IMG/VR virus record: IMGVR_UViG_3300045988_105766
Length of the DNA: 46,812 nt
Source of the DNA: a virus
Reading direction: 5' to 3' (one strand)
Shown here in pieces: positions 36,721 through 37,727 of the stretch; position 1 is the stretch's first letter; every line of letters begins with the position of its first letter. Both the position numbers and the translations under genes were made by a program. The notes below the pieces were generated by a model that worked only from the letters and a program-made list of their open reading frames with translations, was not told where the DNA came from and searched no databases.

Positions 36721-36740
36721 AGGGGTGCTACCGCACCCCT
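36721..36740 (-). promoter_or_regulatory. GC-rich hairpin downstream of VR2 (paralog of 539-560)
   Basis: GGGGTGC-TACC-GCACCCC: 7-8 bp stem with a 4-nt loop (GGTA on the coding strand), about 41 nt 3' of the VR2 end. Confidence 0.7.
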
Positions 36741-36746
36741 TAACAG

Positions 36747-37727
36747 TTATTCAGTAATCAGTTTTCCGTTTACCTCATAAAAAGCGGAGCGGAAACCAAT
36801 GTCGCCGTACGAGCCGGAACGAGGGTGAGCCAAGAGGAGAGCGGACGGACCCGAATAAGAAGAATAGTAGAACGCCGACCCACGGAAAGGCATATATTCG
36901 CCCTCGGTGGCATCAAAGTATACATAGGTCTTTCCCTCTTCCTCTGCTCTTTTATCCGGGATAATTCCCAAATCTTTAAGCACCTGTGGAATTTCTGATA
37001 ACTCAACCTCTAATTTCTCAATTCGTACTCCGTCATAATCCGGCTCGTAATCATCTGCTGCCACGGCATCCGTAATTGTGATTTCTCCACATTCCACATT
37101 TGCCCTTACCGGTCCCTTGGATGTTTCCGCCTGCTGCCATCCGGCACTATCCTTTGACAGGTCGCAGTATGGGGATGCTGCTTTATTGTCCGGGATAAAC
37201 TCTATTACTCCGTCCTTAATCCTTAATCCTGCCAACCATTCCCATACATTACCGTTAAGGTCTGATACTCCATAAGGTGTATGGTCGTGATTCCATGTAA
37301 CCGGTCCTGTACCTGTGTATGTTCTTCCAAGATTACTTACCTTGCCCTGTTCGTCATTGTGGTAGTAGTCCTTGCCCCAATCGGTGTTACCGTGTGGCAT
37401 TGTGCCTTTTTCTCTGCTCTGATTTAACAGATATTCGTACTCTACGGCGGTCATAAGATGCCAACCTAACCCTTTGCATCTGCAAGCCTGTACCGCACCG
37501 TCAAATGTGATATTTACGGTCGGGTCTGCCATTGGCATACTGTAGGCTCTGCCGTCAATTACGATATTCGGGTACTTGGATATGTAAATGGCATCTGCCA
37601 CCTTATCCCCGATTTTGAATACTGCCGGGACCTCTTCGGTATCCTTTGGTCTTACGAATCTGCACATAATAGAGGGAATCCCTCTATCATCAAAAATTAC
37701 TACATTGTTGTGGTCTACTGTGTTCAT
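36747..37727 (-). CDS. DGR variable protein 2 (full-length paralog of 588-1631; C-type lectin/FGE-like fold)
   Basis: 326 aa sharing VIFDD.G.PSIM, GWHL, PHGNT, GN.WEW and C-terminal FRGSAF...GFRSAF with target 1. VR2 lies at its 3' end. Confidence 0.9.
   Translation of the reverse strand: MNTVDHNNVVIFDDRGIPSIMCRFVRPKDTEEVPAVFKIGDKVADAIYISKYPNIVIDGRAYSMPMADPTVNITFDGAVQACRCKGLGWHLMTAVEYEYLLNQSREKGTMPHGNTDWGKDYYHNDEQGKVSNLGRTYTGTGPVTWNHDHTPYGVSDLNGNVWEWLAGLRIKDGVIEFIPDNKAASPYCDLSKDSAGWQQAETSKGPVRANVECGEITITDAVAADDYEPDYDGVRIEKLEVELSEIPQVLKDLGIIPDKRAEEEGKTYVYFDATEGEYMPFRGSAFYYSSYSGPSALLLAHPRSGSYGDIGFRSAFYEVNGKLITE
36782..36891 (-). repeat. DGR variable repeat 2 (VR2)
   Basis: 110-nt alignment to TR. 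All 15 mismatches fall at plus-strand T of TR (A on the coding strand). Confidence 0.95.

Follow-up and report, generated by a model that had tools for sequence, protein, structure and literature searches.

Evidence for an active second DGR target outside the tail module of a common gut phage

The gene T2 (target 2), located in the early region of a human gut phage, is almost certainly an active second target of the phage's DGR, fed by the same template repeat (TR) as T1 (target 1), the last gene of the tail module. The original prediction of a second, non-adjacent target that is diversified independently of VR1 holds, as does its placement in the early region and not in the tail module. We base this on the sequence of IMG/VR record IMGVR_UViG_3300045988_105766, analysed over its whole length of 46,812 nt (hereafter the window), and on comparison with public relatives.

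Results and discussion

The phage and its DGR

The window represents a Lachnospiraceae myovirus prophage, a relative of the Lagaffe/Saumur group, in its circular form of 46,757 bp. Because the genome is circular, bases 1-55 repeat bases 46758-46812; the window end falls inside TR. Nearly all genes of the circle lie on one strand, and the DGR components, both targets and the elements associated with them are all given here on the minus strand. This is an extremely common phage of the human gut, as judged from non-target proteins of which each is found unchanged on 1000 public contigs or more: RT, amidase, integrase, TerL and the two small proteins p68 and p80 that flank T2. Identical amidase, integrase and terminase proteins are encoded in Eubacterium ventriosum ATCC 27560, apparently by a prophage. 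A megablast query with positions 30000-46812 against GenBank phages returned 309 nt of phage Saumur as the sole match; the annotated related phages discussed below surfaced in protein-level searches.

A single DGR ends the tail module. It comprises the accessory protein Avd (92-502; PF22296 bAvd, E = 1.7e-24), the 110-nt TR (46703-46812), which is placed between Avd and RT, and the reverse transcriptase itself (45276-46490; RVT_1, E = 1.1e-26), with the motifs IGNLTSQ and YMDD, the former being of the DGR type. A cognate RT of the DGR clade, a TR and an accessory protein are thus present on the replicon that carries T2. T1 occupies positions 588-1631 and contains VR1 (600-709), followed by heptads (563-590) and a hairpin (539-560).

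T2 encodes 326 aa (36747-37727). Its start codon is ATG, preceded at about 10 nt by the ribosome-binding site AGGAGG. It had been described as a full-length paralog of T1, and a BLASTP comparison agrees (40% identity over 340 columns, E = 2e-73, full length). On the circle, 7549 nt separate the RT stop from the start of T2, in line with the earlier figure of about 7.5 kb; in the integrated prophage we estimate that the T2 and RT genes are 38 kb apart.

VR2 and its cis elements

A repeat finder detected three in-register 110-nt copies, at 600-709 (VR1), 36783-36892 (VR2) and 46703-46812 (TR). VR2 lies at the 3' end of T2 as predicted, with coordinates shifted by one base from the 36782-36891 first given, and the T2 stop codon follows 36 nt past its end. 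It differs from TR at 15 positions, all of them TR adenines, exactly as first reported (hypergeometric P = 1.5e-13, for 22 A in the 110 nt of TR); the substituted sites span 36803-36887. The 10 differences between VR1 and TR are likewise all at TR adenines (P = 1.4e-8 in the same test). A codon comparison also bears out the three doubly substituted Asn codons in VR2, AAC>CTC (N>L), AAT>GCT (N>A) and AAC>GGC (N>G). VR1 and VR2 are both mutated at eight sites and carry the identical substitution at four of these, not three as first counted. This proportion is not above chance (1/3 per site) and so provides no evidence of exchange between VR1 and VR2.

TR, VR1 and VR2 have in common an invariant, GC-rich, IMH-like 3' segment, ATTGGTTTCCGCTCCGCT (36783-36800 in VR2), downstream of which the VR flanks part from the TR flank. 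Three NNNACTG heptads (36744-36765) follow between VR2 and a hairpin and overlap the last T2 codons and the stop. Three to four such heptads stand behind nearly every T1- or T2-type VR compared, whereas the TRs have no such array. The GC-rich inverted repeat 3' of VR2, a DGR target-recognition hairpin at 36721-36740, has an 8-bp stem and a GGTA loop, AGGGGTGC-GGTA-GCACCCCT, so that T2 indeed has its own copy of the 3' hairpin and flank. The VR1 counterpart is AGGGCGTGC-GATA-GCACGCCCT (539-560), and there is no hairpin at the TR of the window. IMH-like segment, heptads and hairpin occur in this arrangement behind both VRs of the window and behind nearly all VRs of relatives; no TR shows it. The letters of the hairpin vary by lineage with the structure kept, as in Saumur VR2 (GTGGGCGT-GAGA-ACGCCCAC) and in Dulem virus 37 (GGGCGCCGGGC-GATA-GCCCGGCGCCC). 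A GC-rich inverted repeat past the IMH is a feature of a subset of DGRs and is required for efficient homing in BPP-1 and Legionella. We also considered the VR2 hairpin as an intrinsic terminator and rejected this, as it has no T-run and is absent from the list of a terminator scan.

Diversification of VR2

VR2 is as hypervariable in public data as VR1. Orthologues with at least 84% identity amount to about 11,200 distinct sequences for T2 and about 11,800 for T1; the exact T2 sequence of the window occurs on 4 contigs and the exact T1 sequence on 2. The population entropy of 116 public T2 orthologues peaks at aa 281, 287, 288, 291, 298, 300, 301, 305, 307, 308 and 309, and these peaks coincide with the codons that contain TR adenines. 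One identical 297-aa backbone was found with 11 different VR2s. Non-adenine changes in the VR2s of relatives follow lineage-specific changes in the corresponding TRs, which indicates continued overwriting from TR. Several public contigs end at or near VR2, as expected of a microdiverse site.

One comparison points the other way. An alternative assembly, apparently of the same sample, shows 17 differences from the window, all within VR1, and VR2 is identical in every alternative assembly found. Within that single sample VR2 looks fixed and VR1 polymorphic, although this is one case, compared at the level of assemblies and with sample identity inferred from the record names. Such a pattern would be expected if T2 were a decayed T1 duplicate that was formerly fed by TR and whose diversification has ended. 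We regard an inactive relic of this kind as very improbable. The T2 ORF is intact, and the IMH-like segment, the heptads and the hairpin are conserved. The thousands of distinct VR2 variants are confined to adenine codons, 11 of them on a single backbone; VR2 co-evolves with lineage-specific TR changes; and the contig breaks are those that microdiversity predicts. The original prediction had named a VR2 that is homogeneous where VR1 is not as the mark of a relic, and across the public data VR2 shows the opposite.

Structure of the T2 protein

T2 matches phrog_2889 (E = 6.6e-112) and PF03781. In a profile search, residues 10-319 aligned to PDB 5VF4 (E = 5.6e-67), the structure of TaqVP from a Thermus aquaticus prophage (PMC6328139), and an AF2 model of T2 (pLDDT 80, pTM 0.85) gave a Foldseek match to the same entry (E = 4.6e-28, TM 0.80). 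The modelled fold is a C-type lectin of the TaqVP type (FGE-subtype), with the VR predicted to lie on the C-terminal binding face. TaqVP is homologous to T2 over the full length and has a single-domain FGE-subtype fold that carries inserts and, as in T2, the VR at the C-terminus. It differs in being an adjacent target and in having an N-terminal segment that aligns with the T1-type extension missing in T2.

This extension contains the motif M..NFD (M..NFD...AV), carried by 119 of 120 T1-family proteins but by none of 120 T2-family proteins. The M..NFD segment of the tail-module paralogues is a candidate docking peptide. T2 thus has neither the tail- or baseplate-module location nor the N-terminal segment of a tail receptor-binding protein; the tail-module position is held by T1. 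Neither a signal peptide nor a transmembrane segment is visible in the T2 sequence.

Neighbourhood of T2 and the integrase

Three small genes upstream of T2 (37755-38369, minus strand) apparently share its operon. They encode an HTH_38 protein (38187-38369), an 88-aa ORF (p88, 37913-38179) and, directly upstream of T2, a 68-aa ORF (p68, 37755-37961). The 68-aa gene is immediately 5' of T2 in every close relative examined; for the annotated phages Saumur, Lagaffe and Dulem virus 37, no counterpart was detected by similarity. Of the neighbours first proposed (HTH, zinc-ribbon and YopX genes), the HTH gene was recovered as HTH_38, while the zinc-ribbon match remained below threshold, as did that to YopX, on a 164-aa ORF at 35624-36118. 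Scans of the T2 neighbours against Pfam, NCBIfam and PHROG gave mostly nothing or 'unknown function'. BLASTP revealed no similarity of p88 and p68, upstream of T2, or of p80 and p111, downstream, to the genes that precede T1 (p101t, p164t and p116t).

An IS30-family DDE recombinase gene (38553-39590, minus strand) is situated 0.8 kb upstream of T2. The family assignment in the original prediction is confirmed (NF033563, 238 bits at a cut-off of 80; full-length match to phrog_4646), but the protein is the phage integrase. An inserted IS as the cause of the position of T2 is not upheld, since relatives with a serine recombinase keep T2 at the same place. Between the integrase gene and the T2 operon, imperfect inverted repeats abut at 38481-38538 (minus strand). 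They constitute the attP or circle junction at which the prophage ends meet, and the termini of the Saumur record fit this assignment. In integrated copies the IS30-family gene is found at the prophage end opposite T2. In one of them (L004), host DNA joins the HTH_38 side directly, and the transposase gene is missing from the T2-proximal end. The IS30-type enzyme of Lagaffe has been described as its integrase (PMC5883640). We rejected the possibility that the gene is an autonomous IS of about 1-1.2 kb inserted in the phage, as its 'inverted repeats' are the prophage ends. Across the junction lies a promoter-like site, TTGACA-18-TAAAAT (38523..38494), directed into the T2 operon.

Position and age of the T2 clade

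The gene order p88-p68-T2-...-replication initiator recurs at more than 40 loci, with T2 identities as low as 59% and with either integration module, IS30-type or serine recombinase. Related phages had been suggested as a check on the presence of the paralog; besides these loci, T2 and the two-target layout recur in Saumur, Lagaffe and Dulem virus 37. T2-clade genes lie outside the tail module in all four phage lineages, in most of them after the lysogeny or integration switch and ahead of the replication genes. Lineages whose T2s are no more than 36-43% identical agree in this position. T1 and T2 belong to different, deep clades; that of T2 is of old origin and distinct from that of the tail targets. 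In one natural variant (L125) T2 is deleted, a loss seen in IMGVR_UViG_3300045988_087590, so T2 may be dispensable. In distant relatives with 55-70% RT identity, the 10 kb that follow the RT contained no T2, a result limited to 10-kb flanks of fragmented contigs, so that T2 may lie elsewhere in those genomes. One of these relatives (L105) has the RT and the replication initiator, and T2 is not between them.

The IS30-family gene 0.8 kb away could suggest that T2 is a recent duplicate of T1 relocated by this element. Alternatively, T2 could be an assembly chimera arising from the TR/VR repeats, and chimeric ORFs that fuse FGE to unrelated domains do exist in public data (P0007, P0041 and P0096). 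We find either origin scarcely credible. T1 and T2 are only 40% identical and belong to separate deep clades, and T2 occupies the same position not only in MAGs and more than 40 independent contigs but also in the two cultured phages Saumur and Lagaffe. The IS30-family protein is an integrase whose gene is at the opposite end in integrated copies, and T2 stays in place in relatives with a serine recombinase. The longest identical stretch between TR and VR, about 20 nt, is too short for misassembly at k=55. Judged by phylogeny and synteny, IS30 relocation and recent duplication are therefore rejected.

Comparison with known systems

The layout of two targets is already known, from Lagaffe (PMC11792537) and from non-adjacent targets in prophages (PMC5758913), and the novelty suggested at first was overstated. 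Faecalibacterium phage Lagaffe (FP_Lagaffe/Lagaffe_CP, NC_047911; Cornuault 2018, PMC5883640) is, like the window, a myovirus prophage with the order T1-Avd-TR-RT-lysis. In both, the IS30-family integrase is followed by a DNA-binding gene, an FGE/Mtd-like second target (gp40 in Lagaffe) and then genes for recombination and replication. Like T1 and T2 of the window, the targets of Lagaffe share about 40% identity. The second Lagaffe VR has been published, and both VRs vary among cognate genomes (2024 study, PMC11792537). Unlike the window, Lagaffe belongs to another lineage, in which T2 is about 41% identical to ours; gp40 has 420 aa, with the VR internal, about 320 nt before the stop, instead of 3'-terminal; and the genes flanking T2 differ. 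The published work on Lagaffe contains no comment on the early-region position, a separate T2 clade or the missing N-terminal motif.

Clostridium phage Saumur (ON453901), the prophage of Enterocloster clostridioformis YL32 from the OMM12 consortium, shares the genome plan of the window. It has the IS30-type integrase at one prophage end and an HTH_38 gene with a 326-aa T2 (VR2 at 44249-44371) at the other, as well as matching halves of the junction promoter. T1-Avd-TR-RT follow the tail genes, and heptads and a hairpin are found behind both VRs. The Saumur T2, annotated merely as hypothetical, is only about 36-38% identical to that of the window, and, unlike there, the HTH gene and T2 are separated by a PAPS-reductase-like gene. 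We found no published description of the Saumur DGR.

The system of Bordetella phage BPP-1 (mtd-avd-TR-brt) resembles the window in its adenine-specific mutagenic retrohoming from TR to a 3'-terminal VR, in its IMH, downstream GC-rich inverted repeat, Avd and DGR-type RT, and in variable residues shown on a C-type-lectin fold. It has a single adjacent target, whereas the window has two, one of them 7.5 kb off and outside the tail module. BPP-1 Mtd forms a trimer and has additional domains at its N-terminus; its Foldseek match with T2 is weak (TM about 0.3). One TR that serves several VRs in trans is also known from the remote targets of Treponema denticola and Legionella. According to the survey by Wu et al. 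2018, many phage-associated DGRs have one adjacent and one non-adjacent target in the same prophage (PMC5758913); targets were classed there by distance, and the genome module of the second target was not addressed.

Possible functions of T2

One TR serves two targets, and in the best overall explanation, which we consider somewhat probable, T2 is a second ligand-binding determinant. The RT-Avd complex would copy TR RNA into adenine-mutagenised cDNA, which could home in trans to any VR that presents IMH and hairpin. Each homing event would rewrite the ligand-binding face of a monomeric C-type-lectin fold of the TaqVP type at 11-12 residues, and T2 would thus be a second, independently evolving determinant of ligand-binding specificity. 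On the circular genome, transcription of T2 may start from the promoter assembled across the integrase junction; in relatives, a cI/cro-type switch could drive it instead. Late read-through could also reach T2, because nearly all genes share one strand. By analogy with T1, T2 most likely serves adsorption or adhesion, which would give the phage two receptor-binding repertoires, and here our confidence is evenly balanced.

Two observations speak against a virion role: in four lineages T2-clade genes are never in the tail module, and T2 is without the M..NFD extension, a region that aligns in TaqVP. A look for virion proteomics found none for Lagaffe in PMC5883640 and none for Saumur.

It is possible, though we think it rather unlikely, that T2 is an active DGR target with a role outside the virion, as an early-expressed, cytoplasmic, hypervariable binder. 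Such a protein might neutralise variable host defence proteins, or sense or block rival phages. The consistent location of the clade outside the structural module, mostly between the lysogeny or integration switch and the replication genes, would fit this reading, as would the missing N-terminal extension of tail-type targets and the lack of a visible signal peptide or transmembrane segment. The promoter-like site that points into the T2 operon exists only in the circular genome. In addition, DGR-diversified C-type-lectin sensors that act inside the cell have been suggested in bacteria (PMC10907252). However, the closest characterised homologues, Mtd and the tail-module genes of the T1/TaqVP family, point to receptor binding, and T2 is diversified as intensely as T1, suggesting a common selective regime. 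An early gene position is also compatible with a late protein, as co-directional genes allow late read-through. More generally, and equally tentatively, the T2 clade could be an ancient DGR-diversified C-type-lectin family outside virion modules, which in IS30-integrase lineages is turned on only at circularisation and provides intracellular programmable recognition, not virion receptor-binding.

Conclusions

In a very common gut phage, two binding proteins are diversified separately from one template. By their own statement, Roux et al. 2021 looked for DGR targets only next to the RT; surveys restricted to this neighbourhood miss second targets and thus undercount the proteins under hypermutation. 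Culturable systems for T2 are at hand with Saumur in E. clostridioformis YL32 (OMM12), with Lagaffe in F. prausnitzii A2-165 and apparently with the prophage of E. ventriosum ATCC 27560. If T2 is an ordinary second antireceptor, it is a routine though clean case of a published architecture. The T2 clade, which is old, always lies outside the tail module and has no tail-type N-terminus, nevertheless poses the question of whether phage DGRs diversify only virion adhesins. Should T2 act inside the cell, it would be the first phage-encoded, DGR-driven intracellular binder.

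Genome organization

The window represents a complete, circular phage genome recovered from a human gut metagenome. Bases 1–55 are repeated at 46758–46812, leaving 46,757 bp of unique sequence. This 55-nt terminal overlap shows circular assembly with the contig break inside the template repeat (TR), so the DGR cassette runs across the window ends. Nearly all genes lie on the minus strand, where the order starts with small and large terminase, portal, head, sheath, tape measure and baseplate. The tail module closes with three small genes and the first target, T1 (1631..588), followed by Avd (502..92, PF22296), the TR (46812..46703, across the window ends) and the RT (46490..45276; RVT_1, DGR-type IGNLTSQ motif, YMDD), all on the minus strand. 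Two small genes, an amidase endolysin, a wall-binding-repeat protein and a poorly annotated 3-kb stretch then lead to an IS30-family recombinase (39590..38553, minus strand). On its 3' side we found an inverted-repeat-rich intergenic region, an HTH_38 gene, ORFs of 88 and 68 aa (p88, p68) and the second target, T2 (37727..36747, minus strand). Small genes, a replication initiator, RecU, methyltransferases and ParA/ParB come after T2. Lachnospiraceae genomes contain related prophages, and the source names of identical proteins include Eubacterium ventriosum ATCC 27560, Agathobacter rectalis, Lachnospira eligens and Roseburia intestinalis.

Some features elsewhere in the genome deserve mention. 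The cytosine methyltransferase (29343–31002) consists of two overlapping ORFs in different frames (30109–31002 and 29343–30509), while in relatives it is encoded by one 502-aa gene or split in other ways; the window's split could reflect a frameshift, phase variation or a pseudogene. ParA (26775–27527) and a ParB_N protein (24941–26392) are encoded at 24941–27527 in a phage that also integrates, and possibilities for their role include plasmid-like maintenance. Tandem repeats of ~190–230 nt in the endolysin gene and the adjacent 386-aa gene (42399–42831, 43536–43951) resemble a segment (7267–7333) of a 443-aa tail protein gene and may encode cell-wall-binding modules common to lysis and tail proteins.

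T2 is a second target of the same template

As originally predicted, T2 is homologous to T1 over its whole length (40% identity, E = 2e-73), and both belong to phrog_2889. A repeat finder returned three in-register 110-nt copies: VR1 (600–709), VR2 (36783–36892) and the TR (46703–46812). Read on the coding strand, 15 sites separate VR2 from the TR and 10 separate VR1 from it, and every one of these is a TR adenine (hypergeometric P = 1.5e-13 and 1.4e-8, respectively, with 22 A in the 110 nt of the TR). VR2 also has the three doubly substituted Asn codons described earlier. Eight adenines are changed in both VRs. Shared substitutions had been predicted and do exist, but they number four rather than three; since one-third would be identical by chance, these 4/8 co-substitutions give no evidence of VR1-VR2 exchange. 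The observation of a second target was thus confirmed.

The sequence ATTGGTTTCCGCTCCGCT, just after the last variable site, is common to TR, VR1 and VR2. Beyond it the two VR flanks are alike, while the TR flank is unlike both. Each VR flank consists of three or four NNNACTG heptads (36744–36765 after VR2, 563–590 after VR1), then a GC-rich 8–9-bp stem with a four-base loop. T2 therefore has its own 3' hairpin and flanking sequence, as had been proposed (36721–36740, AGGGGTGC-GGTA-GCACCCCT); the VR1 hairpin is found at 539–560 (AGGGCGTGC-GATA-GCACGCCCT). Neither heptads nor hairpin occur in the TR flank. The heptads, which in T2 overlap the final codons (…GKLITE*), come after nearly every VR compared, of T1 and T2 types alike and down to ~45% protein identity, and the TRs are without the array. 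We found no description of a heptad array between VR and hairpin in the DGR literature examined. A different motif, GGGTTAAAGGGGTT.TTTTCC.TTCC, lies ~70 nt downstream of the TR (~46624–46649, minus strand). Most relatives, down to 55% RT identity, have it after their own TR, and it probably belongs to the spacer or priming region of the DGR RNA.

VR2 is hypervariable in the population

If VR2 were an inactive relic, as the original prediction allowed, it should lack the heterogeneity of VR1. In public data both VRs proved hypervariable at adenine-templated codons. A homologue search gave T2 orthologues at 84–98% identity, whose 90%-identity clusters hold 4521, 3570, 891, 870, 819 and 371 distinct sequences. 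Among 116 distinct full-length members, per-column entropy is about zero except at aa 281, 287, 288, 291, 298, 300, 301, 305, 307, 308 and 309, which correspond to codons with adenine in the TR (ATC, AAC, AAT, GAC). Eleven different VR2 peptides occur on one identical 297-aa backbone. The exact T2 of the window is present on 4 contigs and the exact T1 on 2; p68 and the 80-aa gene downstream of T2 (p80), RT, amidase, integrase and large terminase are each unchanged on at least 1000 contigs. Distinct orthologue sequences number ~11,800 for T1 and ~11,200 for T2, so population-level diversification is similar in the two targets.

At the DNA level, the VR2s of ~25 independent loci are nearly all mutually different, almost only at TR-adenine positions. 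The rare non-adenine differences in relatives match non-adenine changes in TRs of the corresponding type: loci L025, L026 and L030 have C at two positions, and the VR2s of L012–L015 correspond to the TR type found in L044, L046 and L047. Such tracking fits what continued overwriting from the TR would predict. An ENA scaffold as long as the window (46,812), apparently from the same sample judging by record names, matches it over 20,981 bp, the only exceptions being 17 positions within VR1 (window 600–709 against 262–371 of locus L001), and VR2 is identical in all assemblies found; in that one sample, a single case, VR1 seems to be polymorphic and VR2 looks fixed.

A number of IMG/VR contigs break off at VR2 or close to it (L115, L116, L118, L122, L030), which fits a microdiverse site. 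In some assemblies the T2 FGE domain is fused to integrase, amidase or capsid domains in chimeric ORFs (proteins P0007, P0041, P0083, P0096, P0098). Both look like assembly effects of hypervariable repeats.

T2 lies near a prophage end

The neighbouring protein (38553–39590) had been called an IS30-family transposase. Its family membership stands (NF033563, 238 bits), but the enzyme, a full-length match to the phage family phrog_4646, is the prophage integrase. On a 163-kb bacterial contig that carries an integrated copy, the HTH_38 side is joined directly to host genes and lacks the transposase; T2 therefore lies ~0.8 kb inside one prophage end. Window homology in this copy begins at GCTTCATTGTAAAATGAAATGCGACAAG, which in the circular window is preceded by an imperfect inverted copy, CTTGTCGCAAAACTATTGACAA. 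Both sequences also stand at the ends of the Clostridium phage Saumur prophage record (L110, 1–43 and 47105–47242). The abutted imperfect inverted repeats at 38481–38538 are the two prophage ends joined in the circle.

The junction contains a putative promoter, matching the consensus (38494–38523, TTGACA-18-TAAAAT), that points into the HTH_38-T2-replication operon. Its -35 box comes from one prophage end and its -10 box from the other; in the integrated copy, the -35 half is replaced by host DNA. The joined ends of Saumur read TTGACA-16-TAAAAT. The window site resembles the promoters that form at the junction of circular IS intermediates. A functional promoter here would drive T2 transcription from the circular genome. 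The stretch from the junction to the start of HTH_38 contains a palindrome with an 18-bp stem (38397–38436, AAAATGCGTTGAGGTT/AACCTTGACGCATTTT), surrounded by several more AATGCG-containing inverted repeats within 38370–38550; operators or an attenuator are possible roles for these elements.

T2-type targets form a separate clade

In every relative carrying T2, the gene follows p88 and p68 and precedes the replication initiator. This position is kept down to 59–66% T2 identity and with either integration module, IS30-type enzyme plus HTH_38 or serine recombinase plus cI/cro-like regulators. The two-target design recurs in three annotated phages: Saumur (T1 8735–9802, TR 8075–8197, T2 44213–45193, VR2 44249–44371), Faecalibacterium phage Lagaffe (gp26 and gp40, the latter right after IS30-type integrase gp37 and DNA-binding gp38) and Dulem virus 37, whose second target lies in the accessory region between lysis genes and integrase. 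The Lagaffe integrase has been described as an IS30-family enzyme (Cornuault et al., PMC5883640). A neighbour-joining tree built without the VR splits all tail-module targets from all early/accessory targets; the T1/T2 duplication is therefore older than the divergence of these phage lineages. The T1-Avd-TR-RT cassette is found far more widely than T2. In one contig (L125, IMGVR_UViG_3300045988_087590, 440–800), T2 is cleanly deleted, and its start codon reads in frame into p80 from about codon 25; a genuine deletion mutant and an assembly artefact are both possible.

Non-adjacent targets were reported for 45 of 372 DGRs, and phage-associated DGRs often have one adjacent and one non-adjacent target inside the same prophage (Wu et al. 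2018, PMC5758913). A 2024 Faecalibacterium study found the second Lagaffe VR, demonstrated variation of both VRs between cognate genomes, and proposed that the two ~40% identical, Mtd-like targets double the host-range mechanism (PMC11792537). The present locus therefore adds to a known architecture. In the DGR literature examined, we found no statement of a separate, old T2-type clade, its fixed position outside the tail module or its missing tail-type N-terminus.

Possible function of T2

The profile of T2 and T1 homologues matches the Thermus aquaticus variable protein TaqVP (PDB 5VF4) over nearly its whole length (E = 5.6e-67). The AlphaFold2 model of T2 (pLDDT 80, pTM 0.85) superimposes on 5VF4 with a TM of 0.80; PvdO, EgtB and Mtd are weaker structural matches. 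TaqVP, from a prophage DGR, is monomeric and has a single domain with the FGE subtype of the C-type-lectin fold (PMC6328139).

The system comprises one TR, an RT, Avd and two VRs with full acceptor-site anatomy. By analogy with the BPP-1 paradigm (summarised in PMC5758913), TR RNA would be reverse-transcribed with adenine mis-incorporation, and the cDNA would replace either VR in trans, guided by the GC-rich, IMH-like VR end and the hairpin.

The interpretation originally given for T2 is partly supported. Because of its full-length homology to tail-type targets and equal diversification intensity, we give an even chance to T2 being a second adsorption or adhesion protein. A non-virion role is less likely; in its favour are the position outside the structural module, conserved in four lineages, and the lack of the N-terminal segment of tail-type targets (M..NFD, at the start of 119/120 proteins of the T1-family search and 0/120 of the T2-family search), a segment alignable with TaqVP too. 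Since almost every gene on the circle points the same way, late read-through might reach T2 as well, and position alone leaves the timing unfixed. As a tentative alternative to a role in adsorption, T2 may represent an intracellular, early-expressed binder that is diversified by the DGR.
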